A stretch of 64,000 bases of DNA from Alphaproteobacteria bacterium (GCA_049297695.1 JBAQUT010000036.1:986-64985), one strand, 5' to 3'; shown: positions 1,914-50,998, counted from the first letter of the stretch. Made by a program: numbers and translations. The notes: generated by a model not told the origin, from the letters alone.

Positions 1914-4271
1914 TTACCCCAACAACCCACCCAGCAGCCCTTTGCGGCGGGGTTTGGCTTTGGCAGGCACGGGCGTTTCTTCAACAGCGTCGGCGGCTAC
2001 AGCCAGCTTCACCACTTTCAGGGGTTCGTCGGTGCTGTCGGTGTCGGCTTGCTTTTTCACCTCCATTTTTTTCCGTTTGGCCACAATCACGGGCGTGTCG
2101 TCATCCGTCACCACGGCCACTTTGGCCACTTCCAAGGGTTTGTCCTCGGCAGGCGGGGCGGGGGGAGCCACATGCACGTGCTTGGCCTCGGCCTGTTTGG
2201 TGGGGCGTTTGATGGCCTGCTTCACCTCATCCAACGATGGGGCGGCGCGGGCGGCCATGGGGGCGTCCATCTCGGCCATAGGCGCTTCATCGTCCATGCG
2301 GCGGGGGCGTTCGCGTTCCGGCCCGCGTCCACGGCCACCATGGTTACGGTCGCGGCCGCCACGGTTGTCATCGCGGCCACGGCCACCGTTGCGGTCGTTC
2401 CGGTCGCGGCGGGGTTCGTCACCGCCTTCGGCACGGCCAGCATCCGTACGGGGTTCATCACGGTCGGAGCGGGGGCGGCGCTCTCGGTCGGGGCGTTCGC
2501 CGCGGGGGGCATCGTCGCGGTCGCGGCCACCTTTGGCACCATGATGCTGTTTGTAGCGTTGTTCGGGCGGCAGTTCGGGCTGTTCGCGCAGAATCACTTC
2601 CACCTTTTTGATATTCTCGCTGCCATCAGCCTTCACGGTCACCAGTTCCAAGCGGTGGTCGGGGGCCAGCAGGGTATCGTCGGCTTTGAACACCAGGTGG
2701 TATTTGTTTTTGGCTTCAAGGTCGGCCACCATGGCGCGCTTGCTGTTCATAATCCACATGAGGATGGAAGTTGCGGCGTGCACCACCACGCGGTCGGCGC
2801 CACGGCAATCTTCTTCTTCCAAGCGACGCAGCACCATAAGCGCGGCGCTGGCAGGGCTGTGAACTTGGCCCGTGCCGTTGCAATGGGGGCAGCTGATGAA
2901 GTGGTGTTCGGAGAGGCTAGGCCGCAAGCGCTGGCGGGATATTTCCATCAACCCAAACTCCGAGATATCGGTGTATTGCACGCGGGCACGGTCTTTCCGC
3001 AGCACTTTGCGCATGGCTTGCTCTACCTTGCGCACGTTGCGGTAGTCTTCCATGTCGATAAAGTCCACCACAATCAGGCCCGCAAGGTCGCGGAGGCGGA
3101 TGTGGCGGCCCAGCTCGTCGCAGGCCTCAAGGTTGGTTTTCACGGCCGTTTCTTCAATGTTCCGCTCGTGGGTGTTGCGGCCGCTGTTAATATCCACCGC
3201 CACCAAAGCTTCGGTGTGGTCGATAATCATGTAGCCGCCACTGGGCAATTGCACGCGGGAGAAGTTCAGCTGGTTCAGCTTTTGTTCCACCTTGTGGGCG
3301 GTAAACAAAGGCGTTTCGTCTTTATATTCCTTAATCAGCTTGGCGGCATCGGGCATCAGGGCCTTGGTGTAATCCTTCGCCACTTTGTAGGCGCGCTTGC
3401 CCGAGATAACCACTTCTTCAATGTCTTCCCGCAGCATGTCGCGCAAGGCACGGATAATCAGCGTACCGTCTTCGTGCACGCAGGCCACGTCGTCAGTCGT
3501 TTCGTAGGCTTTTATAATATTGTCCCACAGCGTGCGCATATTTTTATAGTCGTTCACCACGGCATCCACAGGCTGGCCCACACCGGCGGTGCGGATAATC
3601 AGCCCCATGTGGTTGGGCACTTTCATGGCGGCGTACATGTCGCGCAGCGTGCGGCGTTCTTCGGGGTCGGATATTTTGCGCGAAATACCGCCCGCAAACG
3701 GTGTGTTGGGCATCAGCACGGTGTAGCGGCCGGGCATAGACACATAGCTGGTAAGGGCGGCGCCTTTGCTGCCGCGTTCTTCCTTCACCACTTGCACTAG
3801 TATTTTTTGACCTTCTTTCAACACATCCTGAATGCGGTAGCGGCGGTAAATGCCGGGCTGGCGCTTGCGGTCGGAGCGGGGTTCGTCGCTTCCACCTTCA
3901 GCTGTGTTGCCCGCATCGTCGGCGGGAGGAGCCTCATCCGCGCCCTCGCTGCCATCATCCCGCAGGTGGCCGCGGCGGCGTTCGGCTTGTTCGGTAATTT
4001 CTTCCAGCAGTTCAGCCTTTTCACTATCCGGCACGGCAAAAAACTGGGGGTGCACTTCGCCAAAGGCCAAAAAGCCGTTGCGGGTGCCGCCATAGGTAAT
4101 AAAGGCCGCTTGCAGGCTCGGCTCAACGCGACTAACCACGCCAACATACAGGTTGCCTTTGTTTTGGGTTTTATCCGCGGTTTCGGCTTCAAAGTCGTCC
4201 AGCTTGGTGCCGTCTAAAATGGCAACGCGTGTTTCATCCAGGTGGGTGGCGTCAATCAGCATCCGTCTCAT
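1914..4271 (-). CDS. rne: ribonuclease E
   Basis: N-terminus MRRMLIDATHLDETRVAIL (S1 domain and catalytic domain); Arg/Asp/Glu-rich C-terminal scaffold; 785 aa. Confidence 0.9.
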   Translation of the reverse strand: MRRMLIDATHLDETRVAILDGTKLDDFEAETADKTQNKGNLYVGVVSRVEPSLQAAFITYGGTRNGFLAFGEVHPQFFAVPDSEKAELLEEITEQAERRRGHLRDDGSEGADEAPPADDAGNTAEGGSDEPRSDRKRQPGIYRRYRIQDVLKEGQKILVQVVKEERGSKGAALTSYVSMPGRYTVLMPNTPFAGGISRKISDPEERRTLRDMYAAMKVPNHMGLIIRTAGVGQPVDAVVNDYKNMRTLWDNIIKAYETTDDVACVHEDGTLIIRALRDMLREDIEEVVISGKRAYKVAKDYTKALMPDAAKLIKEYKDETPLFTAHKVEQKLNQLNFSRVQLPSGGYMIIDHTEALVAVDINSGRNTHERNIEETAVKTNLEACDELGRHIRLRDLAGLIVVDFIDMEDYRNVRKVEQAMRKVLRKDRARVQYTDISEFGLMEISRQRLRPSLSEHHFISCPHCNGTGQVHSPASAALMVLRRLEEEDCRGADRVVVHAATSILMWIMNSKRAMVADLEAKNKYHLVFKADDTLLAPDHRLELVTVKADGSENIKKVEVILREQPELPPEQRYKQHHGAKGGRDRDDAPRGERPDRERRPRSDRDEPRTDAGRAEGGDEPRRDRNDRNGGRGRDDNRGGRDRNHGGRGRGPERERPRRMDDEAPMAEMDAPMAARAAPSLDEVKQAIKRPTKQAEAKHVHVAPPAPPAEDKPLEVAKVAVVTDDDTPVIVAKRKKMEVKKQADTDSTDEPLKVVKLAVAADAVEETPVPAKAKPRRKGLLGGLLG

Positions 4272-5529: not shown

Positions 5530-5584
5530 CAATCTGTAGATTCAAAGTTATTTGATATTGTGTACACATAAAGAGGGGTATGTA

Positions 5585-5998
5585 ATGAAAAAGCCATTAA
5601 CAGTATCGGATTTCAAAGGTCAAGGTAGTTCTAATCTTCATGGGATTCGATGTAGTCCAGTTGCTTTTCCAATTGGAAATGAAAAACAAGATATAGAAAA
5701 CCTTTTACGAGTGATATATCCTAAGGTAGATGAATATTTAGTAGATAAATTTTATGTCGATAAAGTGAAACAATTTCATATAGCTGCTAATTTCATGCAA
5801 AGCTATTTCATGGAGATTGCAATGATGAGAACAGCTTTGACGGTGTTTGATTTTATAGAAGATGTACATCATATAACGCCCGTTATTATTTCATCTGTAT
5901 CTCAAAGTCTTGCTGAGCGTGGCTTTGTTGTGGCTCAAGGTTTTCACGCACATAACAAAGGCATCTACGTTCGTCGTGAGGGTAGTGTTGAGTTATAG
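5585..5998 (+). CDS. hypothetical protein, low-GC (~33%) insertion between the two permease genes
   Basis: ATG 5585 preceded by AGAGGGG RBS; AT-rich codon usage unlike its flanks. Confidence 0.45.
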   Translation: MKKPLTVSDFKGQGSSNLHGIRCSPVAFPIGNEKQDIENLLRVIYPKVDEYLVDKFYVDKVKQFHIAANFMQSYFMEIAMMRTALTVFDFIEDVHHITPVIISSVSQSLAERGFVVAQGFHAHNKGIYVRREGSVEL

Positions 5999-6719: not shown

Positions 6720-7982
6720 ATGGGACGCTCCTTAAGTATCTTTATGGGCTGTATTCTGGCACTCGGGGCCTTGGTGTGGCCGCCCTTGTTGCCCCACGCC
6801 CAAGAGCCCGTGGCCAAAGTGATGGATGTGCGCATGAGCCACACCCAAGGCCGCACGCGGCTGGTGATGGATTTGGACAAACCCGCCAGCAACCGCTGGT
6901 TTACCCTGCCCAGCCCCGCCCGCGTGGTGGTAGATTTCCCCCAGCTGGATGTGGTGCCGGATATGGCCAAGGTGGTTATCCCCCAAGGTAGTTTGGTGAA
7001 AGCCTTAAGGGCGGGTAACTTCCGCGCTGGCACCACGCGGATGGTAGTGGATTTAACCGCCCCTGCGCGGCTGACGGTGTTCACCATCCCCGGTAACACC
7101 CAGCGCGGCCCGCGGCTGGTGATAGATGTGGTACCCCCCGCCAAAGGCAAACCCGCCACCGATGTTCCACCGCCGCCCGAAGTGGTGACCACCGTGCCCT
7201 TCAAACCCGGCGAACCTTCCACGCCAACCAAGCCCAGCAAAGGCGAACAACAACCCGCCCCCGTAGTGCCTCGTCAAGTGGTAACCGAGCCCACGGGCCC
7301 CTTGGTGGTTGTGCTGGATGCCGGCCATGGCGGGGTAGACCCCGGCGCCTGCGGCCGCACCGTGCACTTGTGCGAAAAGGGTCTGACGCTGGAAATGGCC
7401 AAGCTGGTGAAAGATAATTTGGAACAGAAGGGCGGGTATAAAGTGTTACTCTCCCGGGAGAAAGACGTGTACGTGGGGCTGGCCGACCGGGTCAAATACG
7501 CCCAGCGCCACAATGCCAACCTGTTTGTAAGCCTGCATGCCGACAGCCACCCCGACCGCGACGTGCAAGGCGCCACAGTGTATATGGTGAGTGAACGCGC
7601 CAGCGACCGAGAAGCCCAGCGTCTGGCCAACAGCGAAAACGAGGGCGATATTCTGGCAGGGGTGGATATAAGCCACGAAAGCCCCGAAGTGCAGAGCATT
7701 TTGATGAGCTTGGCTCAGCGCAACACCATCAACCACAGCAGTTATTTGGCCCAAAGCATGATAACGGCCATGGATAAAGTGCTGACCCTCCGTAAAAATA
7801 CGCCCTTGTTTGCTGGCTTTAAGGTGTTGAAAGCACCCGACATCCCTAGCATTTTGGTGGAAATGGGCTACCTGACCAACGGCTACGAAGAACGCCGTTT
7901 GAACGACAAAGCCCACCGCCGAGAGCTGGCCAAGGTCATCGCCAACGGCATCCATGCCTATGTAGGCACCCATGTGCGATAA
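6720..7982 (+). CDS. amiC: N-acetylmuramoyl-L-alanine amidase (AmiC-type, AMIN domain plus Amidase_3)
   Basis: VVVLDAGHGGVDPGA ... SLHADS motifs; N-terminal AMIN-like domain. Confidence 0.85.
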   Translation: MGRSLSIFMGCILALGALVWPPLLPHAQEPVAKVMDVRMSHTQGRTRLVMDLDKPASNRWFTLPSPARVVVDFPQLDVVPDMAKVVIPQGSLVKALRAGNFRAGTTRMVVDLTAPARLTVFTIPGNTQRGPRLVIDVVPPAKGKPATDVPPPPEVVTTVPFKPGEPSTPTKPSKGEQQPAPVVPRQVVTEPTGPLVVVLDAGHGGVDPGACGRTVHLCEKGLTLEMAKLVKDNLEQKGGYKVLLSREKDVYVGLADRVKYAQRHNANLFVSLHADSHPDRDVQGATVYMVSERASDREAQRLANSENEGDILAGVDISHESPEVQSILMSLAQRNTINHSSYLAQSMITAMDKVLTLRKNTPLFAGFKVLKAPDIPSILVEMGYLTNGYEERRLNDKAHRRELAKVIANGIHAYVGTHVR

Positions 7983-8073
7983 GTGAGTACAATTTAGGCA
8001 GATATGTGTATATTTTCTGGAAATCTACGTCCAACTTCGGCACCCTAAAGAACTTAGAGGGAAGGGGTTACGG

Positions 8074-8508
8074 ATGGATTTGCTCAATGTTAGGGTTCGT
8101 TGTCTCGAGTTTATTGCCAAGCTGGATAAAAACCCTGTAGGTGTGAACGAATATTTTTATGTTATTTTAGGTGTCGGTGAAAACCTGATTTCTGTTTACC
8201 CCATTGTTGTGCAAGAAATTGAAAAACGGAATGTGTTAGAAGCGCAAGATGGTAAACCCATATGGGAATTTGTACTGATAGACCATAATTTTAATCATGG
8301 TTCCCCGCTCACGGTTATTTTTGATATTGCCAAACGCTACCACCCTCGGGTTGACCAATTTTTCTTGGAGCAGGCAGCTGATATTCCTCCATTACCTAAT
8401 ACCCCCTACCGCGATGTGTTACGCCCCCACCACGATGCCCGCCGTGGCGAGAAAGGTAAACGCCGCGAAGTGTTGGGCCGCTGGCTGGGCGAGGGGCCTG
8501 AACTCTAA
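8074..8508 (+). CDS. hypothetical protein (5' part low GC)
   Basis: 144-aa ORF with RBS; immediately upstream of tRNA-Met. Confidence 0.35.
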   Translation: MDLLNVRVRCLEFIAKLDKNPVGVNEYFYVILGVGENLISVYPIVVQEIEKRNVLEAQDGKPIWEFVLIDHNFNHGSPLTVIFDIAKRYHPRVDQFFLEQAADIPPLPNTPYRDVLRPHHDARRGEKGKRREVLGRWLGEGPEL

Positions 8509-8554
8509 ATCGGCTCTTGCCTAACCCGCCCCTTGCGCCTTATACACACAGCGT

Positions 8555-8630
8555 GGGCGAGTAGCTCAGCGGTTAGAGCAGGGCACTCATAATGCCTTGG
8601 TCGCTGGTTCGATTCCTGCCTCGCCCACCA
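8555..8630 (+). tRNA. tRNA-Met (CAT), elongator type
   Basis: Cloverleaf GGGCGAG...CTCGCCCACCA; anticodon loop CTCATAA; G1-C72 and no 3xGC anticodon stem, so not an initiator. Confidence 0.85.
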
Positions 8631-8747
8631 TGAATTTTAATTGCGGCAGGGTACTCCGCTGCGCTCCGTTTCCTGCCTCGCCCACCATGAGATTCAATTG
8701 CGGCAGGGTCCTCCGCTATGCTTCGGTTCTTTCCTCGCTCCCCAACC
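8614..8747 (+). repeat. 2.3 tandem copies of a 57-bp unit that begins with the tRNA-Met 3' end
   Basis: TCCTGCCTCGCCCACCATGA...ATTGCGGCAGGGT repeated at 8614, 8671 and degenerate at 8729. Confidence 0.6.
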
Positions 8748-8826
8748 TATTCCTCATGCCGTGCATTTTTTGGTATCGGGCAGGGTTGACAACCGCCGCG
8801 CAAGCCAGCATAACCCCGCTCGGTAT

Positions 8827-8901
8827 TCCGGCGTAGCTCAGCGGTAGAGCATCGGACTGTTAATCCGCAGGTCGCTGGTTCGATCCCAGCCGCCGGAGCC
8901 A
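8827..8901 (+). tRNA. tRNA-Asn (GTT)
   Basis: TCCGGCG...CGCCGGAGCCA; anticodon loop CTGTTAA. Confidence 0.85.
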
Positions 8902-8946
8902 GTTAGTTTTTCTTAACGAGCCTTGCGAGTTTAGAAAAGCTACTGT

Positions 8947-8966
8947 CCTCGCGTAGGCGGGGACCT
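8947..8966. repeat. GC-rich REP-like hairpin (CCTCGC GTAG GCGGGG)
   Basis: 15/16 identical to the hairpin at 18046-18061. Confidence 0.4.
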
Positions 8967-9164
8967 CCCTCGTGTTGGGAGGCCATTTCAACTATTTTCC
9001 ATAAATATGCTGATTTTACTTGCAATGTTGGGGGTTCCCCTCCATATGCTGGAGAGCAATGCCCGAATGTTCAGGCGTTTCTGCTGCTCTGCGCGTGATG
9101 TGTGTGGTGCTGCCACAAGGCTTTTCGGAGCCACCATACATCCACGAAGCAAGGAGCTTTTCCC

Positions 9165-10592
9165 ATGACCATGCCTATATCTCAACCCGCCGCCGATGCG
9201 GTACTTGAAACCGTTGAAACCATTGAAACGGTTGCCGAAGAAACATCAAACCCATCTGGCTTTGCCGCCTTGGGGTTGGATGCCGCGTTGGTAAACACAT
9301 TGACCGAATTGACCCTGACCACCCCAACCGAAGTGCAAGCCCGCGCCATACCCGCCGTGCTGGATGGCCGCGACGTGATGGCCAGCGCCCCCACAGGTAC
9401 GGGTAAAACCGCCGCGTTTGTGTTGCCCGCCCTTCAACTGTTGCACACCACCCCCGCCCACCCAGAAGGCCACGGCCCCCGCGTGCTGGTGTTAACCCCT
9501 ACGCGGGAGTTGGCCCAACAGGTGGTGGATAATATCCGCAAGCTTGGCCGCGCCGTGCGCCTGAAAAGCGCCGTGGTGGTAGGTGGCGTAACCTACGGCC
9601 CCCAGCTGCAAGCCTTGCGCAACCCGCTGGATTTGCTGGTAGCCACCCCAGGCCGCCTGATTGACCACCTGAACGACGGCAAAGTGGATTTCCGCCGCAT
9701 TGACATGGTGATTTTGGACGAAGCCGACAAAATGTTGGATATGGGTTTTTCCAAGCCTGTGGAGCAATTGCTGCAAGCCATTGAAGACGCTGGCCAGCAA
9801 CCCCAAATGCTGTTGTTCTCGGCCACCTTTACCAAAGCCGTTACAGCCATGGCCGCCCGTGCCCTGCACGAGCCCGTGAAGATTGAACTGGCCAAAGCCA
9901 ACAACGAAAGCGCCAACATTGCGCAAAAGGCCATCCGTGCGGATAGCCAAGAGCACAAGTTGGCCATGCTGAAAGCCATGCTGGAAAAAGGTGATATTGG
10001 CCAAGCCATCGTGTTTAGCGCCACCAAGCACGGGGCCGATAAGTTGGCGGATAAGCTAACCGCAGGCGGTTTCCCCAGTGCTGCCCTGCACGGCGGTATG
10101 AAGCAAAACGCCCGCAGCCGCACGTTGGACCAATTGCACCGCGGCAGCGTGAAGCTGCTGGTAGCCACCGACGTGGCCGCCCGCGGGATTGACGTGAAAG
10201 GCCTAAGCCACGTGATTAACTTTGATATGCCCCAAGTGGCGGAAGACTACGTGCACCGCATTGGCCGCACTGGCCGCGCGGGCGAAACGGGGATTGCCAT
10301 TAGCTTGGTAGCCCCCAGCGACGTGCCCATGCTGCGGGATATTGAAAAACTGCTGAAAAAACCCATGGAACTGGCTAGCATGGAAGGCTTTGAACCCAAA
10401 ACCGACGAGTTGGACTTTTTGCGTGCCGGTGCTGCGGCTCCCCGTAGCCGTCGTGGCCAAGGGCGCACAGGCGTGGGTGGTGGTGCAGGCCGTGGCGGCC
10501 CGCGCCGCGATGGTGGCAGCTTCGGCGGCGGCCGTGGCCGTTCTGGCGGTGGCGAACGTTCGGGCGGTGGTAGCCGTCCACGCCGTTACTAG
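9165..10592 (+). CDS. rhlE: DEAD-box ATP-dependent RNA helicase (RhlE-like) with Gly/Arg-rich C-terminal tail
   Basis: AAGGAG RBS 8 nt upstream; APTGTGKT, DEAD, SAT, HRIGRTGR motifs. Confidence 0.85.
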   Translation: MTMPISQPAADAVLETVETIETVAEETSNPSGFAALGLDAALVNTLTELTLTTPTEVQARAIPAVLDGRDVMASAPTGTGKTAAFVLPALQLLHTTPAHPEGHGPRVLVLTPTRELAQQVVDNIRKLGRAVRLKSAVVVGGVTYGPQLQALRNPLDLLVATPGRLIDHLNDGKVDFRRIDMVILDEADKMLDMGFSKPVEQLLQAIEDAGQQPQMLLFSATFTKAVTAMAARALHEPVKIELAKANNESANIAQKAIRADSQEHKLAMLKAMLEKGDIGQAIVFSATKHGADKLADKLTAGGFPSAALHGGMKQNARSRTLDQLHRGSVKLLVATDVAARGIDVKGLSHVINFDMPQVAEDYVHRIGRTGRAGETGIAISLVAPSDVPMLRDIEKLLKKPMELASMEGFEPKTDELDFLRAGAAAPRSRRGQGRTGVGGGAGRGGPRRDGGSFGGGRGRSGGGERSGGGSRPRRY

Positions 10593-11395: not shown

Positions 11396-11538
11396 GAGAT
11401 ATTGAGTAATACAAGGACAAGATTAAGGCTATTTTGAGTACGCTTCGCGTTGGGAAGCCTTTTCTGCAACGCCCTCCGCGCGTTGCAGTCGAACGCGCTC
11501 AGAGGCGCGATTCATATCGTGTTACCTACCTCGTTTTG

Positions 11539-11575
11539 AATAAAATAAGGGGCGCAGAGGCCCCTTATTTTATTC
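11539..11575. terminator. Bidirectional Rho-independent terminator
   Basis: AATAAAATAAGGGGC GCAGA GCCCCTTATTTTATT. Confidence 0.6.
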
Positions 11576-11583
11576 AAAAACCA

Positions 11584-11671
11584 TGGCGGGTAGGACAAGA
11601 TTCGAACTTGCGAGGAGTTGCCCCCTACACGCTTTCCAAGCGTGCGCCTTCGACCACTCGGCCACCTACCC
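11584..11671 (-). tRNA. tRNA-Ser (GGA), long variable arm
   Basis: Minus-strand GGGTAGGTGGCCGAGTGG...anticodon loop TTGGAAA...CCTACCCGCCA. Confidence 0.8.
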
Positions 11672-13861: not shown

Positions 13862-14347
13862 ATGAGTGATATTGGTTCGTTTATGTTTGGAGTAGGAGCA
13901 TTGATCGTGCGTCCAGATGGGCGTGTTTTAGTTTTGAAGCGAGCATCAAATGTTTCTGATTGGAATGTAGAAAAATGGGAGCTTGTTTATGGCCGTAAAG
14001 CCCAGCTAGAGGAGATAGAGGATTGTGTGCGGCGTGAGATTTTAGAAGAGACAGGTATAGTTGATGTTGAAATTATAAGGGCTCTTAGATCATGGCATTT
14101 TTTTAGGGGAGATAAAGTAGCTGAATCTGAGATTTTAGGGATGACTTTTTTGTGTCGTACAACAACGCTCGAACCAAAGTTGAGTCGAGAACATACTGAT
14201 TATCGCTGGGCAACACCAGAAGAAGCGTTAAATTTGATTGAGGTTAAAGGAATACGTTTGGATGTTGAATGTTATCGTGATGCACGCATGGCGTTGGTAC
14301 TATCAGGTACTCATGAGACGCTTTGGTTAGATGGGACAAAACGTTAA
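13862..14347 (+). CDS. NUDIX hydrolase, low-GC (~40%) gene
   Basis: Nudix box GRKAQLEEIEDCVRREILEETGI (GX5EX7REUXEEXGU). Confidence 0.7.
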   Translation: MSDIGSFMFGVGALIVRPDGRVLVLKRASNVSDWNVEKWELVYGRKAQLEEIEDCVRREILEETGIVDVEIIRALRSWHFFRGDKVAESEILGMTFLCRTTTLEPKLSREHTDYRWATPEEALNLIEVKGIRLDVECYRDARMALVLSGTHETLWLDGTKR

Positions 14348-15285: not shown

Positions 15286-16165
15286 CGTGCGGGATATCAT
15301 CGCCCTTGCCAAACCTCGCATCATTGTGTTGCTGGCAATTACATGCTTGGCAGGCAGTTTGGTGGCCGCCAAAGGCAATTGGGAGCTGTTGGCATGGCGG
15401 GCGGATGCCGTGGTGTGGGGCTTGCTGGGCTTGGTGCTTTCGGCCAGCGGCGCCAACATGCTGAACATGTGGTTTGACCGCGATATCGACCCGTTGATGA
15501 AGCGCACCCGCACGCGGCCGATTCCTGCGGGTCGCATGGCGCCTGCCACGGTGTTGGTGTTGGGGGTAACAACGTTGGTTTTGGGTGGGCTTGCGGCCAG
15601 CATGGCGAATATGCTGACCGCCGCCATGGCCTTGGCGGGCGGGCTGTTTTACGTGCTGGTTTACACCATGGTTCTGAAGCGGAACACGGTGCAAAACATT
15701 GTGATTGGCGGGGCGGCGGGGGCCTTCCCTCCCGTGGTGGGGTGGGCAGCGGTGCAGGGGGATGCAAGCACGCTTTTGCCGTGGCTGATGTTCGGGGTGG
15801 TTTTTTTATGGACGCCCCCGCACTTTTGGGCGCTGGCCCTGATGGCCAACACCGATTACACCAAGGCAGGCGTGCCCATGTACCCCGTGGTGTACGGCGA
15901 AGCCGCCACGCGGATTGCCATGATGCGCTACCTGTGGGTGCTGGTGGCGTTTACCTTGCTGGGCGGATTGTTGCCGCCCTTGGGCTGGCTGTACACCTGT
16001 GCGGCGCTGGGGTTGGGCCTGTGGTGGGGTATGGCCTGTTACCGCTTGTTGCATGCACCTCAACCAACATCTGAGAACATGCAGCCTGCACGGCTAGTGT
16101 TCATCCGCTCGCTGTACTATTTGGCCTTGCTGTTTGCAGCCATGGTGGGGGATAGTTGGTATTAA
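15278..16165 (+). CDS. ctaB: protoheme IX farnesyltransferase (heme O synthase)
   Basis: UbiA-family motifs NMWFDRDIDPLMKRTRTRPIPAG. Confidence 0.85.
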   Translation: MANVRDIIALAKPRIIVLLAITCLAGSLVAAKGNWELLAWRADAVVWGLLGLVLSASGANMLNMWFDRDIDPLMKRTRTRPIPAGRMAPATVLVLGVTTLVLGGLAASMANMLTAAMALAGGLFYVLVYTMVLKRNTVQNIVIGGAAGAFPPVVGWAAVQGDASTLLPWLMFGVVFLWTPPHFWALALMANTDYTKAGVPMYPVVYGEAATRIAMMRYLWVLVAFTLLGGLLPPLGWLYTCAALGLGLWWGMACYRLLHAPQPTSENMQPARLVFIRSLYYLALLFAAMVGDSWY

Positions 16166-16506
16166 AGGCCCAAGGTTCGCATTTCGTTTTCTGACATAGG
16201 AGGCAGTATGTGCTGATGTGGTTTATGGATACCGCTGTTCTTCAGAGGTTGAAAGGTAAGTCTAAACCCTGAATCATTCGCATGTTCAGGGCAACGGATG
16301 ACATCGTCTTTATCGGGAGAAATATCATCCTCACGCGTGAGTCCGTGAAAGTGTTCTAATTTACTGTGGGTTGAATCTTCAACAAGATACGTCCCAGACT
16401 GAAGGGCTGTAAGAGTAGTATAGGCATCACACGTTGAGCGCCATATGGTGTGAACATAAAGCTCACAGCCAACAACGCGTAGGATACAAGATTGTGTTTC
16501 ATCCAT
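16162..16506 (-). CDS. hypothetical protein, low-GC (~45%) insertion between ctaB and cox11
   Basis: 114-aa ORF; 4-bp convergent overlap with the ctaB stop. Confidence 0.4.
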   Translation of the reverse strand: MDETQSCILRVVGCELYVHTIWRSTCDAYTTLTALQSGTYLVEDSTHSKLEHFHGLTREDDISPDKDDVIRCPEHANDSGFRLTFQPLKNSGIHKPHQHILPPMSENEMRTLGL

Positions 16507-31569: not shown

Positions 31570-32364
31570 ATGGTTGTGATTGCCACCTTTTACCATTTTG
31601 CCGCCATGCCGGATGCCGCCAAGGTGCAGCCCGTGTGGAAAGCGTTTTTGCTGGAGCAAGGTGTGACGGGAACCATTTTGGTCACGCCGGAAGGCATCAA
31701 CGCCACCATTGCCGGCCCCCGTGCGGGGGTGGATGCCGTGCTGGCCATGATACGGGCCGATGCGCGCTTTACCCCCATGACGCACAAAGAAAGCTTTGCG
31801 GAGGCAAGCCCGTTCCCCCGCACCAAGGTGAAGTTGAAGAAGGAAACGATTCCGCTGGGCGTGACGGTCGACCCCACCAACCCCGGAACCTATGTGAAGC
31901 CCACCGAGTGGAATGCCCTTATCTCCCGCCCCGACGTGATTTTGGTGGATACCCGCAACGCGTACGAAACCAAGGTAGGCATTTTCAAAGGCGCGAAGGA
32001 CCCTTCCACCCGTACGTTCAAAGAGCTTCCGGCGTGGGTTGCGGCCAACATTCCCGACAAGAAAACCCCTGTGGCCATGTACTGCACGGGCGGCATCCGC
32101 TGCGAAAAAAGCACTGCCTACATGAAGCAGCAAGGCTACGAGAATGTGTATCACTTGGAAGGCGGTATTTTGAAATATCTGGAAGACGTGCCCGAAGCCG
32201 ACACGATGTGGGAGGGCGCCTGTTACGTGTTTGACCACCGCGTGGCCGTGAAGCACGACCTGACCCCCGCGTTGGAACTTCAGGTTTGCCCAAGCTGCAA
32301 CATGCCGGTGACGGCGGGGGATATGCGGCGGGGGCATATGCAGTGTTGTGGAGGGATTAAATGA
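31570..32364 (+). CDS. trhO: rhodanese-domain protein TrhO (tRNA U34 hydroxylase, UPF0176/YceA family)
   Basis: [10 protein letters not shown] active-site loop; C-terminal Cys-rich tail. Confidence 0.75.
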
Positions 32365-32786
32365 ATCGCGTGAGGATTGCAAAAGGCACGACGATTGATC
32401 AAATCCGGCATGTTTTTGGCGGTACAATTCCAGAATGGCACCCTGATGAATTTATCCAATCACGATTAAGAAGTGGATATGTATTTGTTGCATTAGATGA
32501 AAATGATCACCCGATTGGATTTCTAATATACTCAATCTGGTGGGGAAATTGCCCTTTTATTGAATTAATCAAAGTAGTTGAGGATATGAGGGGTATGGGA
32601 ATAGGTTCTCAATTATTGGATGTGGCAAAAGCAGAAATTAAGGCAAAAGGTTTTGAGATGTTAATTGCATCCAGTGAAATGACAAACATGTTAGGACAAA
32701 AATTTCACGAAAAGTTAGGTTTTAAGAAGCTTAACTCACTTGTACTTCCACATGGCGAAGAACAGTTTTTTGGGATTAATTTGTAA
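32361..32786 (+). CDS. GNAT family N-acetyltransferase, low-GC (~38%)
   Basis: [14 protein letters not shown] acetyl-CoA binding motif; ATGA overlap with the trhO stop. Confidence 0.6.
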
Positions 32787-32901
32787 CGCGCCCGAAAGGA
32801 TGACCCATAATCTTTTGTGGCTTCGCCGTTTGAATGGGTTGTTTCTTTCGGGCGATAAAGCTAAAAACATACCCCCTGACGGGGGCATCTTTTAAGCTTT
32901 A

Positions 32902-32978
<77 letters not shown>

Positions 32979-34373: not shown

Positions 34374-34790
34374 ATGAAACAGCAACCTGATATCTGCTTT
34401 GTAAAACGCAAGAATGGCGAAAAACATATTGATTTTTATAAAGCTAAAATGCCTGGTGAAGATGCTGATAGGGTCGCAAGTATTCTTTTAGATAAAGATG
34501 GATTACTGGTTTGGGCCAATTTGGAAAATGGTGGGGCACGAAATGTCCAAGAGTTTGTGGAGTGGGAAATAGATTCACAAACACAAGAAGATTTAAAAGA
34601 GTTGATGGTGTATGTTCAAAGTACTGGAAAGAAACCTTTAAAATATGGGCAAACTGAAGTGCTGGATGTAAGAGGTTTTAACCCAAGTACCAAGGAATTT
34701 CTGATTGCGGGCATTTTCAACGCATATCAAGTTAAAATGCAGACAATGGCAGACGAACAGGCCTATCCAGATTACGCCTCCCCACTTTAG
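34374..34790 (+). CDS. hypothetical protein, low-GC insertion
   Basis: 138-aa ORF, AT-rich codon usage. Confidence 0.4.
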   Translation: MKQQPDICFVKRKNGEKHIDFYKAKMPGEDADRVASILLDKDGLLVWANLENGGARNVQEFVEWEIDSQTQEDLKELMVYVQSTGKKPLKYGQTEVLDVRGFNPSTKEFLIAGIFNAYQVKMQTMADEQAYPDYASPL

Positions 34791-42124: not shown

Positions 42125-42565
42125 AAGCAGGTACGGGCCTGTCCCGGTTTCGACGGAGCTTGAAGGGGTTCCCAAGGAGCATGCGGTGGGGGTTGGATTC
42201 CACCTAAAAAAGTCCAGCAGGCACTTAAATGCCAAATCGACTGTAGACAATAGCCTTGCGGCCCGTCGCGCTATGCGCGCCATGCCCATGGCTATGGCTG
42301 CCTAACCTAGACTCAGATTGGATTCTGACCTAGGCTAGACGCCCCAAGACCGTTTCCCACAGATTGGCGTGGTGGCGGACCCTTGGATTCATCCCCGCCA
42401 ATCTAGGTTCCCGTGGTGTCTTCACGCGGGTCGCGCCGAAATTAAGATGGGCAACCACAGGGTGCGGGGTGTCTGGCGCTAACTGTGGAACCACCAGACA
42501 CTAAGCATGTAGAGCCACACTTCAACGAGGTTCGGACGTGGGTTCGATTCCCACCAGGTCCACCA
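42125..42565 (+). ncRNA. ssrA: tmRNA (ssrA), one-piece
   Basis: 5' GGGCCTG pairs with 3' CAGGTCC-A-CCA including G3:U70. Conserved TTCGACGG, CCCAAGGAGCATGC and 3' CTAAGCATGTAG...GGTTCGATTCCCACCAGGTCCACCA. Internal frame GCC AAA ...GCT GCC TAA ends with Ala-Ala. Confidence 0.75.
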
Positions 42566-42566
42566 G

Positions 42567-42612
42567 TTAGCAATAAAAATATCCCCATAGAAGGGGATAT
42601 TTTTATTGCTAA
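42567..42612. terminator. long perfect palindrome, bidirectional terminator after ssrA
   Basis: TTAGCAATAAAAATATCCCC ATAG AAGGGGATATTTTTATTGCTAA. Confidence 0.6.
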
Positions 42613-42755
42613 TGACAGAGAGGTGGGGCCCTTCGGGTCCCACCAGGTCGGACGGGATACCAGATACCAAACCTCATTGAAACACTGTCTATACGGGGAG
42701 GGTTACGAAAAACCCCTTGCAGAGAAAAGCCCGATACGGTATTGACGGCCACAGT

Positions 42756-42854: not shown

Positions 42855-42940
42855 GGAGGAATTCCCGAGCGGCCAAAGGGGACTGACTGTAAATCAGTTG
42901 GCGTACGCCTTCGAAGGTTCGAATCCTTCTTCCTCCACCA
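42855..42940 (+). tRNA. tRNA-Tyr (GTA), long variable arm
   Basis: GGAGGAATTCCCGAGCGGCCAAAGGGGACTGACTGTAAATCAG...TTCCTCCACCA. Confidence 0.85.
42886..42940 (+). repeat. attL: 3' 55 nt of tRNA-Tyr, identical to the copy at 51116-51170
   Basis: ACTGTAAATCAGTTGGCGTACGCCTTCGAAGGTTCGAATCCTTCTTCCTCCACCA present twice. Confidence 0.8.
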
Positions 42941-43001
42941 TTTTGTTTTATAATATCTTTTCTTGAAAATCCCTCTTCCAAAATTCTCCCTAAAATCTCT
43001 C

Positions 43002-43023
43002 TTTGGGACACTCTTGGGACATT
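43002..43023. repeat. 22-bp direct repeat TTTGGGACACTCTTGGGACATT (copy 1, ~60 bp inside attL)
   Basis: Identical copy at 50977-50998; internal TTGGGACA x2. Confidence 0.6.
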
Positions 43024-43029
43024 TGCTCC

Positions 43030-43068
43030 CTAAAATCGTATAAACCCCCTCTACATCTTTTAGGGGGG
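43030..43068 (-). terminator. putative Rho-independent terminator after umuC
   Basis: CCCCCT...AGGGGG hairpin followed by a T-rich tract on the minus strand. Confidence 0.45.
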
Positions 43069-43081
43069 TGTGGCGTTGCTG

Positions 43082-44341
43082 TTACCTTACTCCCACCAAC
43101 TCATCCCACCGCGTGGTATAGGCACGGGAGAGAGATTCCCGCTTCATCCCCCAGCCCTGTTTAGTGCCAAGGCTCCCCAGCCGCACAAAGGCCTTGCCGT
43201 AGCGGGTATCGAGATTGTCGAGCGTTTGCATCAGGGCTTGGGTGCGGGCGGTATCGGCCCCGTCCAGCAAGCTGGGTTGGTGCTGGGTGGCAGGGATAAG
43301 GTCAAGAAGCAGGATGCCCGCCTTCTTATAGGCAAAGCCCTTGCGGTAAAGGGTGTGGAGCAAGCGGTGGGCGTGCCGTACCAGTTCGGCAGTGTCAGCG
43401 GTGGCGTAGGGCAACCCCATGGCTTGGCTTGCACTATATTGAGAGGCCTTGGGCTTGAACCTGTTAGTATGGGCAAACACCAGCAACCCTTGGGCTAACA
43501 GATTATCCCCTCTTAGCTTGCCAGCGGCGCGGGTTACATAGGCGGCCACCGCTTCTTCCAGTTCGGCCAAGGTGGTTACTTCCCGCCCGAAGCTCCGCGT
43601 GCTTTGGATGCTCTTGCGGGTGGGTTGCACCAGTTCCAGCGGCAAGCAGCTTACCCCCTGCAACTCGCGTACAAGGCGCTCCATCACCACGTTGTACTGT
43701 TTCCGCATGGAGGCGGCATCGGCGTTGCGAAGGTCTAGCCCGCTGTTTATCCGCTGTTCTTTTAACTTCTCGGAAAACTGCCGCCCGATGCCCCATAAAT
43801 CTCCTACGTCCATAGCTCCCAGCGCTGCCTCTTGAGAGGCGTTATCAGACAACAAACAGACACCGCCCAAGGCAGGGTTCTTTTTGGCGGTGCGGTTGGC
43901 GGCTTTGGCGAGGGTTTTGGTGGGGGCAAGGCCGATGCTCACAGGGATGCCCGTCCATTGCTTCACCTTGGCCCGTAGCGCCTGCATTGCGCCTGTTAAG
44001 TGTTCCAAGGGGATGCCCCGCACATCCAAAAAGGCCTCATCCACGCTATACACCTCCACCGCTGGGGCGGCATCCCGCAGCACACTCATCACCCGCGCAC
44101 TCATATCCCCGTAAAGCTGATAGTTGGAAGAAAACACCACCACCCCGTTCTGGCGGCAGAGTTTCTCCACTTTGAACATAGGCGCCCCCATCGGTATCCC
44201 CAGCGCCTTGGCTTCGTTGCTACGGGCTACCACACACCCATCATTATTCGATAACACCACAATGGGTTTGCCTTCCAGCTTGGGGTTGAAGGCCCTCTCA
44301 CACGAAGCATAGAAGTTGTTGCAGTCTACCAGCCCATACAT
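43082..44341 (-). CDS. umuC: Y-family DNA polymerase V catalytic subunit UmuC
   Basis: [23 protein letters not shown] catalytic motifs; 419 aa. Confidence 0.85.
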
Positions 44342-44345
44342 CGCC

Positions 44346-44726
44346 CTACACCTTATGAATCACGTTGCTCACCACACCCCACACCACCAACTCATCCCCC
44401 AGCACCTTGGGCGGCTTGCCTTGTTCGCCCTGCAAGGCCCATTGCCCGTTGACCTTTACCAGCCGCCGCACAAACATCTCTCCCGCCACCACCGCTATCA
44501 CCACGCTCCCCACGGCGGGGGTAAGGCTCTTGTCCACCACCATTAAATCACCTTTAAAGATACCAGCCCCCTGCATGGCATCGGCTTTGGCCCGCACGAA
44601 ATAGGTGGCGGCGGGGTGCTTCACCAAATAGGCGTTCAAGTCCAAGTAACCCTCTAAAAAGTCATCGGCAGGGCTGGGGAAGCCAGCGGCTACGGAACCA
44701 TACAAGGGCAGGAGTTGGGGTTGCAT
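44346..44726 (-). CDS. umuD: UmuD-like S24 peptidase-fold protein with catalytic Ser and Lys replaced (Ala/Arg)
   Basis: VAAGFPSPA cleavage-site region aligns to UmuD CGFPSPA; ASGDSM becomes AKADAM and TVKKL becomes FVRRL. Confidence 0.7.
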
Positions 44727-45031
44727 GGGTTATTGTTGTATCATTAATCACCCGCGGTCAATCCCCATCTATCTCCTTGACGCTGGGGTTATCCCACTCT
44801 AACTTCACAGTTGGAGAGATAACTCTCTGGGGCATCAAAACCTCACAAGATGGCTGGCACCACCAAAAGAGTTGCTGTTTGTGTATTTAGCACATCCTAA
44901 GTTGCGCTCTATGCGGCTGGGTGGTGGTGCTATGTCCAAGGCGTAAGCTGAAAAGCCCCACGCCGTATCTTGTACGGTTTTGAACACCCAGCCACCTTTA
45001 TCGGGTGGCTTTTGTTTGAAACCAACAAAGG

Positions 45032-45334
45032 ATGCACACCATGAAACCCCTCTCTATTGCTGTTCTATTACTGTTATCGGCTTCCGCCGCCCATGCCGAA
45101 TGGGTGAATGGCTACACTCGCAGCAATGGCACCTACGTTGCCCCACACGCTCGTAGCGCCCCCGATGGCAACCGTTTCAACAACTACTCCACCCAAGGCA
45201 ACACAAACCCCTACACAGGCCAAGCGGGAACCGTGAACCCTTACAGCGCCAACCAAGGCGATGCAGGAAACGGCTTTGGTGGTAGCGGCTTCAACCAACC
45301 CAGCACGCCCCGTGGTTTTGGCGGGTGGAGATAA
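45032..45334 (+). CDS. small secreted Gly/Asn-rich hypothetical protein
   Basis: Signal peptide MKPLSIAVLLLLSASAAHA; 100 aa. Confidence 0.4.
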   Translation: MHTMKPLSIAVLLLLSASAAHAEWVNGYTRSNGTYVAPHARSAPDGNRFNNYSTQGNTNPYTGQAGTVNPYSANQGDAGNGFGGSGFNQPSTPRGFGGWR

Positions 45335-45480
45335 GCCATGCAGCAAGAAGATTCAGCCTCACGCCCTGAAATGGTGATTGTGTTTGGCTTTTTTACCCTC
45401 TGGGGGTTCATCGTTGGGCTGGGGGTGGGGTGGTGGGTTTGGTGTTGACATTGAATACAATGCTCTGGTACACCTGCCAT

Positions 45481-46386
45481 ATGGCCAAGATAGCAATCCA
45501 AAAATCCACTGGTGTTCCTGTGCATGCCCGTGACGCCTCCACAACAGCGTTAGAAAGAGGTTTAAACAGCCCTTTTGACTTTGCCTGTATGGAGTGCGGG
45601 GTAACATTGCGCTGCACGCATTACGCCAAACCGTTTTCGGATAAAGACCATGTGTATTTCGGTGTCTATGGTGACGCCTACAAGCATGAACCTTACTGCA
45701 ATTCAGCATATGGCTCGGAGTCAAATGGAAACACGCATAGCCATGAAGAGTGGGAACAAGATGATGTCGAGGTTGTCTCTCCCCGTGTCATGCAATTTGA
45801 ACCCCAAACAAGAAATTTCCCAGAGACTGACATTTCATCCCGCGAGGTTCGTTTAACAGGGCAACAAAAATCCAGAGAAACCCTCACCGATTTGATATGG
45901 AGAAACGGAACAAGTCTTTCCGCCCTCCGCAAAGCCAATGCCTATCAATTTAGAATTAGCGGCCAGATTTTCTCTATGGCTCAAATCTTTAATTCACCAA
46001 CAACAACTCTCATGAATGGTGTTGATGGTAAATCCTTTAATGGCGGTGTAGCATTTGGCTTAGCTCGGATATATAGCAAACCTGCGCCATCTGACCGAGT
46101 ATCCATCAACTTTATGGAACGGTTTAATCATGACGGAAATCTCATCCCTGTTATGGGCAAACTAGACCTTGATACATTACACCTTAACGACCCTATGAGG
46201 CACTGGATAAGAGATGGAATCCAACAAGGTGGGTTGTATGATATAGCCATTAAATGGCGCGAATCAGCTTTGGAGCGTGCCAAGAGAGACGGAGGAAGAT
46301 GGGAGTTTATGAAGGAATCGCCTCAGCTTTGGTTTACGGACATTGAGAAGATAGCTATCAAAGCAAGTTCTGGTAACGGTCGCTAA
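45481..46386 (+). CDS. hypothetical protein (island cargo, reduced GC) with N-terminal Cys/His cluster
   Basis: FACMECGVTLRCTHY...; no family recognised; the track ORF starts at 45430 and the first ATG is 45481. Confidence 0.45.
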   Translation: MAKIAIQKSTGVPVHARDASTTALERGLNSPFDFACMECGVTLRCTHYAKPFSDKDHVYFGVYGDAYKHEPYCNSAYGSESNGNTHSHEEWEQDDVEVVSPRVMQFEPQTRNFPETDISSREVRLTGQQKSRETLTDLIWRNGTSLSALRKANAYQFRISGQIFSMAQIFNSPTTTLMNGVDGKSFNGGVAFGLARIYSKPAPSDRVSINFMERFNHDGNLIPVMGKLDLDTLHLNDPMRHWIRDGIQQGGLYDIAIKWRESALERAKRDGGRWEFMKESPQLWFTDIEKIAIKASSGNGR

Positions 46387-46625
46387 ACCTCATCCGTAAT
46401 CAACTCCCTCCACACCCTCCAAATCTCTAAGTTTTCTAACGAATACCTCCCATGGATGAGGTTGGCCTTGCTAATCGCCTCCCTCCCAGCCTCGGTTTTA
46501 GGCCCCGTAGCCTTCCCCCCATGCAACCGACAACAGCCATTCCGCATGGCAGGTTGACGGCATAGTAGGCGGGTACGTTTGCAGCGGCACTTGCACTTGG
46601 GCAGGGTATGAATGGGAACGGACAT
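46383..46625 (-). CDS. small Cys-rich zinc-ribbon-like protein with an HGG motif (phage-associated type)
   Basis: CKCRCKRTRLLCRQPAMRNGCCRLHGGKATGPKT. Confidence 0.4.
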   Translation of the reverse strand: MSVPIHTLPKCKCRCKRTRLLCRQPAMRNGCCRLHGGKATGPKTEAGREAISKANLIHGRYSLENLEIWRVWRELITDEV

Positions 46626-46629
46626 GGGG

Positions 46630-47238
46630 TTATTCCTCGGTTTTGGGTTTACTGCCCCCACACCCCGCCACCGCCCCCACCACGGCTTGGCCGCCAGCTT
46701 GCACCTCCACCTTCTCCACCACCACACGCTGGGTGCTTATCCCCGCTTGCCGCATTTGGCGTAGCAAGTCCATTTGCCGCAGCAACACGTTTTGAGCTTT
46801 GTGGGCACGGTTGGTGTAATACCCCGCCACCTCCAAAGTGTTATCATCCAACGAGCGTGCCAGCATCCGCATTGCCACATGGTTGGTCGCCACTATCTGG
46901 GCTGCCAACATGCTTTCCAGTTCGTTTTGCGGAGCCAAACCATAAAGCTGGGCCACGATGTTGTTCACGGCATTGGCATCTTTGCTTGGCAAAATGGATT
47001 GCAGGTGGGTCAGCTTCACGTTGATGCTCCCCGCATCCAACGTGCCGAACGCTTGCGCCAGCGTGAACGTGGTTTGAGGTTCGTTCATCACGATGTGCAT
47101 CGAACGATTGCCATCGCCCGTATCTTCCAGCGCAAACTCTTTGCGGTTCTTGTAATCCTCCAGCTTGGCGTTCAACACGGCCCGCTTTTCGGGGGTCAGT
47201 TCAAGTGTCCCTTTGGGTTTGGGGGTGAGGTCGGTCAT
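46630..47238 (-). CDS. hypothetical protein (island)
   Basis: 202-aa ORF downstream of the AAA_25 gene. Confidence 0.4.
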   Translation of the reverse strand: MTDLTPKPKGTLELTPEKRAVLNAKLEDYKNRKEFALEDTGDGNRSMHIVMNEPQTTFTLAQAFGTLDAGSINVKLTHLQSILPSKDANAVNNIVAQLYGLAPQNELESMLAAQIVATNHVAMRMLARSLDDNTLEVAGYYTNRAHKAQNVLLRQMDLLRQMRQAGISTQRVVVEKVEVQAGGQAVVGAVAGCGGSKPKTEE

Positions 47239-47304
47239 GATTTTAGCTTTCGTTAGGTGTTCGTTCGTTCGGTTTCCTAGGAGTGCCGAACGCCGAACGG
47301 GTTA

Positions 47305-48864: not shown

Positions 48865-48981
48865 AGGTTTTATTCCTATCAGTTACCGCTAGGCCCCTGC
48901 ATCAATACTTGAGCATTCGCTAGCGTTGATAGGATTAGAACATGAGTTTATCTATATGAAAAGTAACGAGTATTTGCAAAG

Positions 48982-50942: not shown

Positions 50943-50976
50943 TTTTCATACCCATCTTAGATTCTAGCTATTCCCA

Positions 50977-50998
50977 TTTGGGACACTCTTGGGACATT
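50977..50998. repeat. 22-bp direct repeat TTTGGGACACTCTTGGGACATT (copy 2, between int and attR)
   Basis: Identical to 43002-43023. Confidence 0.6.

Follow-up and report, generated by a model that had tools for sequence, protein, structure and literature searches.

A decaying 57-bp tandem array following a tRNA(CAT) gene, and partial tRNA copies downstream of other tRNA and tmRNA genes

Introduction

Partial copies of a tRNA 3' end lying downstream of the intact gene are known from the tandem RtT units of the Escherichia coli tyrT-tyrV locus and from the fragments associated with genomic islands in tRNA genes. Here we report an array of 57-bp units, each beginning with the end of the preceding tRNA gene, in a stretch of 64,000 nt from a metagenome-assembled genome labelled Alphaproteobacteria bacterium (GCA_049297695.1, JBAQUT010000036.1:986-64985; hereafter the window). 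The gene has the anticodon CAT and is called tRNA(CAT) below. The explanation towards which we lean, at slightly less than even confidence, is that the array is a DNA-level recombination scar at the 3' end of tRNA(CAT), and not a present-day mobile element.

In the E. coli tyrT-tyrV locus (NZ_AP018488.1 1624287-1627371, reverse complement), the units are 178-bp tandem repeats annotated 'RtT sRNA, processed from tyrT transcript' (sRNA, small RNA), and the copies score 121-134 bits with the RtT model of Rfam (RF00391). Each unit ends in AATCCTTCCCCCACCACCA, the end of tRNA-Tyr from the T-loop on. In the Rfam consensus, an upstream GGGGAAGGAU paired with AUCCUUCCCC of the tRNA-end copy closes the RNA; in E. 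coli this outer stem repeats the tRNA-Tyr 3' strand in inverted form. AAGGTTCGA is present in the unit as well, which gives the appearance of a tRNA-Tyr T arm interrupted at 58|59 by ~77 nt. rtT RNA is still said to be of unknown function (bioRxiv 10.1101/2024.07.17.603846).

For genomic islands, crossover sublocations in the anticodon loop, the T-loop and J have been distinguished, and displaced tRNA fragments described (Islander, PMC4383910). Partial tRNAs left by successive integrations have also been reported (bioRxiv 10.1101/2020.12.28.424599).

Results

The array downstream of tRNA(CAT)

The tRNA(CAT) gene occupies positions 8555-8630 on the plus strand and encodes its CCA (ARAGORN; Rfam tRNA, 69.2 bits). 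Tandem Repeats Finder reported a repeat of period 57 at 8613-8738 (2.2 copies, 85% matches, score 182), and in a repeat search the last 26 nt of the tRNA recurred in register at 8605, 8662 and 8719, with 100%, 85% and 77% identity. These results bear out the initial annotation of this DNA, which had described a tRNA followed by a 57-bp tandem repeat.

Unit 1 (8613-8669, plus strand), delimited by Tandem Repeats Finder, the repeat search and alignment, starts with O1, the 18 nt that end the tRNA (8613-8630), and continues with TGA, an AU-rich linker, the hexamer GGCAGG (8645-8650), which is a partial inverted copy of the tRNA 3' strand, and a 19-nt loop. Unit 2 (8670-8726, plus strand) has the same layout, with O2 (8670-8687) and TGA, the linker, GGCAGG (8702-8707) and the loop, and its O2 and TGA match the tRNA end at 21/21 positions. 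The tRNA part of this block, the 18-mer TTCCTGCCTCGCCCACCA, is exact at 8613 and 8670 (chance expectation 0.16 at no more than 3 mismatches). The non-tRNA part of the unit, AATTGCGGCAGGGTMCTCCGCT, is found only at 8639 and 8696 in the window, with 0 occurrences expected.

Unit 3 (8727-8801, plus strand) is degenerate. Its tRNA-end copy, O3 (TTCTTTCCTCGCTCCCCA, 8727-8744), matches at 14/18 positions and is in register at 77% identity (p about 0.02-0.03). It is followed by an insertion of ~20 nt that closes with a T6 run (8766-8771), and by a spacer remnant at 8779-8801, where GGCAGGGT..CCGCCGCGC (CCGC.GCGC) aligns with the spacer (p=0.0135). With this remnant, the array runs from 8613 to ~8801 and comprises roughly 3.3 units, so that the tandem copies first described as 2.3 over 8555-8760 extend further than had been proposed. 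The array decays with distance from tRNA(CAT), from an exact copy to one with 14/18 matches and an insertion.

Units 1 and 2 differ at 8/57 positions, all outside the tRNA-end block with its TGA (hypergeometric p=0.018). Divergence is 0 in this 21-nt block versus 22% elsewhere (p=0.005 to 0.018). The two 39-nt spacers are equal in length and 79% identical (31/39), and are therefore copies of each other and not the products of two independent events. At least one step in the formation of the array was thus a tandem duplication. Plain slippage or unequal crossing-over of a 57-bp segment spanning the tRNA end and its native trailer, with neither a recombinase nor a function involved, would account for the strict head-to-tail arrangement, the fixed period and the homologous spacers, and also for the resemblance of units 2 and 3 to the tRNA upstream of the T-loop. 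As an explanation of the whole we consider it unlikely, in view of the start positions, inverted copies and shared motif reported in the following sections.

The hexamer GGCAGG sits 19 nt upstream of each CCTGCC in the CAT units (inverted-match p about 0.04-0.07). The resulting hairpin is no stabler than those of shuffled sequences (z=-0.87 as RNA). A scan of 8300-9300 for intrinsic terminators found none; no terminator lies ahead of 8766, and an AU-rich stretch follows each CCA. Since the units lie ahead of the first T-run, they are probably co-transcribed with the tRNA as its trailer. This raises the possibility of an RtT-like RNA, in which the units would be functional trailer modules, cleaved at the AU-rich linker that follows each CCA and then trimmed. 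This would yield a small hairpin RNA, mimicking with its 3' strand and ACCA tail the acceptor/T-arm minihelix of the tRNA, much as E. coli rtT RNA is released from the tyrT transcript. The absence of a preceding terminator and the AU-rich stretches suit such an RNA, as does the closing architecture shared with the E. coli tyrT-tyrV units. It is also consistent with the placement of the 8 differences between units 1 and 2, all of which spare O and GGCAGG (p about 0.008 by a combinatorial estimate made by hand). The ordinary stability of the CAT hairpin speaks against it, and so does the RtT covariance model, which gave no match on 8500-8900 even at E<=10. We regard an RtT-like RNA as possible, though rather unlikely; evidence from other genes is given below.

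The closest E. coli match of tRNA(CAT), in a comparison with 5,423 E. coli genomes, is annotated tRNA-Ile of the CAT/lysidine type (82.6% over 69 nt). For this reason the gene is probably a tRNA-Ile2 and not the tRNA-Met of the initial annotation, a call that followed from the anticodon. A U51.U63 mismatch is read within its T stem, GCTGG/CCTGC.

Other readings of the repeat were rejected. A protein-coding one is allowed by the unit length (57 nt being 19 codons) and by a 79-aa open reading frame (ORF) with a TTG start that spans the units (8597-8836), but this ORF starts inside the tRNA and is unsupported. The spacer as a deleted tRNA pseudogene is suggested by GCAGGGTACTC versus GCAGGGCACTC of the anticodon stem (10/11, a weak match with a rough p of about 0.01 before collinearity is considered); the inverted GGCAGG explains the likeness of GCAGGGTACTC equally well. 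CRISPR-like repeats, a casposon target duplication, a miniature inverted-repeat transposable element with inverted ends, and the insertion sequence families IS200/IS605 and IS110 were dropped on one or more of three grounds: homologous spacers, lack of terminal inverted repeats, and lack of a linked enzyme.

Copies of the 3' end at other genes

The last 18 nt of every tRNA and of the tmRNA in the window were used as queries, with shuffled sequences as the null. A downstream copy of the 3' strand was found for five of the eight genes (CAT, Arg, Tyr, Ser and tmRNA), with p<=0.002 for each match. All copies begin at the end of the T-loop (position ~59), at ATCC or TTCC, and for Arg and Tyr similarity to the tRNA is absent immediately upstream of this point.

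For tRNA-Arg (32902-32978), the 3'-end copy lies 100 nt downstream of the gene, in a module at 32784-32854 (minus strand). There, 43 nt of structured interior separate an inverted copy, CGCCCGAAAG (32845-32854), from the direct copy ATCCTTTCGGGCGCGTTA (32784-32801, 16/18). Both direct and inverted matches have p about 0/500. The CCA is lost in this copy (GTTA). A convergent GNAT acetyltransferase gene of 37% GC (32361-32786) has its stop codon overlapping the altered CCA, GTTA giving TAA on the other strand.

For tRNA-Tyr (42855-42940), a second exact 18-nt tRNA end starts 85 nt past the distal repeat (attR) of the genomic island described below. This module (51203-51273, plus strand) has an inverted copy GAAGAAGG (51203-51210, p=0.03), a structured interior and the exact 3' end (51256-51273).

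The tmRNA gene (42135-42565) and its terminator are followed by a module at 42622-42649 (plus strand), of the form GGTGGG-loop-TCCCACCAGGTC, the last 12 nt of which copy the tmRNA 3' strand 72 nt downstream of the gene (direct match p about 0/500); its hairpin has a free energy of -20.9 kcal/mol (z=-2.4). For tRNA-Ser (11584-11671, minus strand), a 10-nt copy ATCTTGTCCT (11414-11423, minus strand; p=0.002) is found ~160 nt downstream, past a terminator hairpin. After both tmRNA and tRNA-Ser (42566-42649; 11414-11583), a long terminator hairpin, AT-rich with a GC core, precedes the partial 3'-strand copy.

The tRNA loci of related species were reached via flavoprotein homologues at 69-75% identity. 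In one of them (L129), a tRNA-Tyr module at 3830-3981 ends in an exact 18-nt copy of that gene's own end, 134 nt downstream, with the acceptor strand TCTCTCC versus TTCCTCC in the window. There, GAAGGTTCGA lies 51 nt upstream of the 3'-end copy, so that the T arm looks split at 58|59. The piece GCCGTCATCGA..GAAGGTTCGA, which precedes the split T loop, resembles a tRNA-Tyr variable arm of a type unlike that of the organism's own gene, when judged by the E. coli tRNA-Tyr sequence. A second tRNA-Tyr module (L130, 4362-4529), with the acceptor strand TCCCACC, carries an 11-nt copy downstream. In a tRNA-Val module (L138, 4589-4703, minus strand), an exact 10-nt inverted copy GCGATACAAG (GCGAT versus GTGAT in the tRNA) precedes a degenerate direct copy.

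The copies in these three modules match their own tRNA even though the acceptor stems differ, while the L130 and L138 copies, like O3 of the CAT array, are decaying. In all, 8 of the 17 tRNA and tmRNA genes examined in the clade have a short-range copy of their own 3' end, with a common start position. Of the control tRNAs in unrelated loci, those that the search pattern had not selected all lacked a convincing 3'-end copy.

That the copies at eight genes, five in the window and three in relatives, should share a start position does not follow from plain slippage. The adherence of the O copies to each species' own tRNA is in line with an RtT-like RNA; the decay of O3, L130 and L138 and the loss of the CCA at Arg are not.

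Short-range duplication also exists outside the clade. A scan of genome contigs for two CTCGCCCACCA copies 41-71 nt apart returned mostly GC-rich coding sequence, this 11-mer being common in reading frames, and among the matches listed only three loci were tRNA-related (L009, L024 and L100). Two of them, at unrelated actinobacterial tRNA-Leu(CAG) genes (L009, 5737-5882; L024, 5890-6043), have a second 3'-end copy ~68 nt downstream; at L009 this copy takes in the T-arm, and the trailer occurs twice as well. These cases add to what can be said for slippage.

Inverted partners and a shared interior

Inspection of the modules revealed that most 3'-strand copies have an inverted counterpart upstream, with which they form a hairpin; at the tmRNA this counterpart is GGTGGG. 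In the usual layout the tRNA is followed by a terminator hairpin, and then come the inverted copy, the interior and the direct copy. The inverted copies are exact complements of the 3' strand and do not reproduce the tRNA 5' strand, as seen at Arg (AAAG versus AGAGG in the tRNA).

The Arg and Tyr modules fold alike: an outer stem (9-10 bp) encloses an inner one of 6 bp and a small hairpin at the apex (GGC-GAA-GCC and GGCC-GCA-GGCC). Both fold far better than shuffles (Arg, z=-3.8 as RNA and -3.4 as DNA; Tyr, z=-5.1 and -4.5). Their interiors align (p=0.003), and the inner stem, ACCCAT/ATGGGT in Arg versus ACGGCT/AGCCGT in Tyr, is kept by three double changes. Compensatory pairs were taken from the fold outputs, MAFFT having misregistered the L129 row. 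The Arg module and the L129 Tyr module share CCATTCAAA(C/GT)GGCGAAGCC at 19/20 identity (z about 6.6, 0/1000 shuffles). Together with the L129, L130 and L138 copies, this motif indicates that the copies track their own tRNA and the interiors are common to different tRNAs. Searched with an nhmmer profile of the Arg/Tyr interior, 1.09 Mb of collected sequence yielded nothing beyond the three copies used for training, and the module motif had no match in the IMG/VR scan.

Plain slippage accounts neither for the inverted copy nor for a motif shared by modules of different tRNAs. For an RtT-like RNA, the stable Arg and Tyr folds and the compensated inner stem are points in favor. They are offset by the strong terminator hairpin that stands between gene and module at Arg, Tyr, Ser and tmRNA and makes co-transcription unlikely there, and by the scores of the RtT model on the Tyr modules, 13.9 bits (51190-51273) and 16.6 bits (L129, 3865-3981), well below the gathering score of 45, although both alignments are in register (E-values 0.4-2.8).

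The inverted copies also bear on a third alternative, that of miniature cassettes with a hairpin attachment (att) site. The units would have entered as folded single-stranded DNA, with a stem imitating the tRNA target (compare CTXphi attP and integron attC), and successive insertions would give a tandem array with the newest unit nearest the tRNA. The age gradient along the array agrees with this. Single-strand exchange predicts the order tRNA, body, inverted copy, loop, 3'-end copy, chromosome, and this order is seen at Arg, Tyr, tmRNA, Ser and the L138 Val locus, and weakly at tRNA(CAT). The exact Watson-Crick complementarity of the inverted copy to the 3' strand (AAAG/AGAGG at Arg, GCGAT/GTGAT at L138) is also as such cassettes would have it. 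The apical loops are GNA triloops; these form very stable DNA mini-hairpins. On the other side, the modules lack a linked recombinase candidate, and their stems have just 6-12 bp (6 bp in the CAT units, p about 0.04-0.07). An element of 57 nt would be tiny for a reaction of this type, neither free nor polymorphic copies were seen, and the model gives no route by which a cassette would come to match another tRNA. We consider these cassettes improbable.

A broader conclusion can be put forward with low confidence only: that a modular hairpin follows many tRNA and tmRNA genes in this uncultivated proteobacterial lineage, its stem rebuilt from each gene's own 3' strand (a direct and an exact inverted copy) and its interior shared among different tRNAs and maintained by compensatory changes, E. 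coli RtT being one isolated, long-known member of a much wider, unrecognised class and the CAT array its minimal tandem form. If so, the class would consist either of RNAs that mimic tRNA ends or of miniature hairpin-att cassettes inserting at T-loops. The array alone would be a small curiosity of the tyrT type; its weight comes from the pattern in the clade.

Integrases and the search for a donor

Integrases act on genes of this kind, both in the window and elsewhere. A genomic island of 8.2 kb (42941-51170, plus strand), delimited by exact repeats, sits in the tRNA-Tyr gene. Its attR is a 55-nt 3' part of tRNA-Tyr that starts in the anticodon loop (51116-51170), and its tyrosine integrase is encoded at 49869-50942 on the minus strand (Phage_integrase, 1.6e-35). 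The cargo includes umuD/umuC-like genes (Peptidase_S24, IMS), a gene for an AAA_25 and HTH protein, and orphan ORFs, one of them of 34% GC. No integrase was found among the large ORFs scanned at 1.9-12.8 kb, and the initial remark that none is present here holds for these neighbors; for the window it does not, as the island integrase lies 41 kb away.

A looser metagenome scan for the 3' half of tRNA(CAT) gave a sole match (L128, 11004-12338). It is a 45-nt tRNA(CAT) fragment running from the anticodon loop to the CCA, with no full tRNA within 12 kb upstream; a tyrosine integrase of 370 aa (Pfam, 1.7e-31) begins 177 nt away. The T stem of the fragment is paired (GCAGG/CCTGC) and its flank is unlike the 57-bp unit. 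Elements targeting tRNA(CAT) therefore exist, acting via the anticodon loop and with unrelated flanks. The T stem of the tRNA(CAT) in the window looks chimeric: the 3' strand, CCTGC, agrees with that of the L128 fragment, and the 5' strand, GCTGG, with that of E. coli tRNA-Ile2. The gene downstream of the L128 integrase possibly encodes a metal-efflux outer-membrane protein, judging from its translated sequence.

Surroundings of the array

The neighbors of the array encode RNase E, two ABC permeases, an AmiC-type amidase, an orphan 144-aa protein, two tRNAs and a DEAD-box helicase. Relatives have PAS and MCP genes downstream of amiC, and aspS-asnB upstream of the helicase gene. DNA homology to these relatives ends inside the end of amiC (7880-7891) and restarts at 9008, in the helicase leader, so that the orphan ORF, tRNA(CAT), the array and tRNA-Asn occupy a break in synteny. 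No orthologous tRNA(CAT) locus was recovered among the amiC relatives or the helicase relatives.

The orphan ORF (8074-8508, plus strand) ends 46 nt upstream of tRNA(CAT). Its GC content of 46%, versus 56.7% for the window, supports the low-GC ORF that had been noticed just upstream. It has no Pfam or PHROGs match and is present on one other contig only (L001, a Logan contig of the same organism). Positions 1-1234 of that contig are identical to 7370-8603 of the window and stop within tRNA(CAT) at position 49, two bases short of the mismatched U51. This end could reflect a polymorphism, or a repeat-induced break in that read set.

tRNA-Asn (GTT) follows at 8827-8901 on the plus strand (ARAGORN; Rfam, 70.4 bits). 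A promoter-like TTGACA-17-CATAAC at about 8787-8815, overlapping the end of unit 3, was read by eye and was not reported by the scan. The ~165-nt leader of the DEAD-box helicase gene (9008-9173) shows 68-73% DNA conservation in relatives with a different upstream gene, which suggests a regulatory 5' untranslated region.

Elsewhere in the window, small ORFs of low GC content (35-47%, versus 57% for the window) are wedged between conserved genes, at 1492-1908, 5552-5998, 13862-14347, 16162-16506 and 34374-34790. The clearest is 5552-5998, between two ABC permease genes that directly overlap in a relative (L133). Most have no Pfam or PHROGs match; 13862-14347 encodes a NUDIX protein. The tmRNA mentioned above is a one-piece molecule of 431 nt with the tag AKSTVDNSLAARRAMRAMPMAMAA, whereas Alphaproteobacteria mostly have a two-piece, permuted tmRNA; the Alphaproteobacteria label of this DNA may for this reason be loose.

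Discussion

The recombination scar that we tentatively prefer would have formed in three steps. In the first, a T-loop crossover of the kind made by T-loop/J-type tyrosine integrases would have displaced the tRNA 3' strand (~59 to the CCA, plus TGA) a few tens of bases downstream, leaving a 39-nt stub; the involvement of an integrase is our inference. In the second, to which the homology of the spacers points, the 18-nt end and the 39-nt stub would have been amplified in tandem, probably by unequal crossing-over or slippage between 21-nt identical blocks. The third step is the decay of the copies with distance from the tRNA, as observed. No function would be required of the units, and the same process would have operated at at least four other tRNA and tmRNA genes of the window and at tRNA genes of related species. 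We favor this scar because of the common start position at eight loci, the integrases acting on these genes, the chimeric-looking T stem, the synteny break, and the T-loop/J crossovers and partial tRNAs in the published record. The attP of an integrase-bearing element carrying TTCCTGCCTCGCCCACCATGA and the spacer would fit the first step.

The initial annotation had attributed the duplication to repeated integration and excision at a tRNA att site. The link to att sites remains plausible, given the block running from the T-loop to the CCA plus 3 nt, the L128 fragment, the tRNA-Tyr island and the four sister genes. The reading is thus supported in part. Integration and excision would not alone make such an array: when precise they restore the site and leave nothing behind, the 39-nt spacers contain no element, and tandem duplication is needed. 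Nor did the mobile element that was to carry the unit as its attP come to light in phages, plasmids, viral contigs or JGI metagenomes.

A number of observations weigh against a recombination scar. Between and beside the units there is no integrase, cargo gene or recognisable element end, and the DNA between copies amounts to only 39 nt. Searches for the unit drew a blank in 50,697 phage records and in 72,556 plasmids (BLAST), in three IMG/VR scans and in the JGI metagenome scan; nor did phages, plasmids or IMG/VR yield an attP-bearing element with this tRNA end. The loss of whole elements, leaving only 39-160 nt at each of eight loci, would be an awkward coincidence. An ordinary double-stranded att scar predicts neither the inverted 3'-strand copy upstream of most copies nor an interior that the Arg and Tyr modules share, with compensatory changes. 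Similarity of the CAT array to the tRNA extends weakly upstream of position 59 (TGGTTCGAT versus TGCTTCGGT, 7/9), which makes the boundary blunter here than at tRNA-Arg and tRNA-Tyr. Finally, the E. coli tyrT/RtT repeats share this architecture and are not known to have been explained by an integrase.

If a site-specific recombinase makes the modules, they would be a compact record of past integrations, one that island-finding pipelines such as Islander miss because candidates <2 kb are rejected. If the modules are RtT-like RNAs, a second lineage with modules at different tRNAs would provide comparative material on the role of a mimic of the tRNA 3' end. The function of RtT RNA has been obscure for decades.

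Comparison with known systems

With integron attC and CTXphi attP sites the likeness is one of anatomy only. It comprises imperfect inverted repeats that are nested and vary towards the apex, structure conserved beyond sequence, a possible tandem arrangement, and direct and inverted copies in the predicted order. These modules differ in that no IntI- or Xer-type enzyme is linked to them, the consensus of the R and L boxes is lacking, and the stem is specific to each tRNA. Neither R''/R' boxes (RYYYAAC/GTTRRRY) nor dif-like arms were seen on reading the modules, and no integron-type integrase was present among the scanned ORFs.

The attR fragments of genomic islands (Islander; tycheposons) are likewise direct repeats of a tRNA 3' part from the T-loop or the T/acceptor junction, and in tandem islands the older copies are likewise pushed away from the tRNA and decay. 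The CAT copies have the orientation of the gene, lie downstream of an intact copy and start at a known T-loop sublocation (~59), as att scars do. The array differs in its spacing of 57 bp and not kilobases, in spacers that are copies of each other, and in the presence of an inverted core copy. Integrase or element DNA is missing between tRNA and fragment, where there are 39 nt only, and the adjacent 144-aa ORF is without a match to phage families.

With the E. coli RtT repeats, the array shares tandem units placed directly 3' of a tRNA gene, in about 2-3 copies, each unit with the tRNA 3' end from ~58/59 to the CCA (19 nt in E. coli, 18 nt in the CAT array). In both, an upstream complement forms the outer stem and leaves the acceptor end and CCA as a single-stranded tail. 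The CAT units thus have the anatomy of RtT, lying downstream of a tRNA with its own 3' end and a closing stem, although this stem is short and thermodynamically unexceptional. The unit is 57 bp and not 178 bp, the tRNA is of the CAT type and not Tyr, the stem has 6-8 bp, and there is no sequence similarity. In addition, the modules of this lineage follow several tRNAs and the tmRNA, usually behind a terminator. A further detail concerns GGCGAAGC, which is located ~15 nt before the 3'-end copy in E. coli RtT versus 18-20 nt in the Arg and L129 modules. Set against these systems, the array is a variant form of the tRNA-linked repeats of the tyrT/RtT type, or of displaced tRNA fragments.

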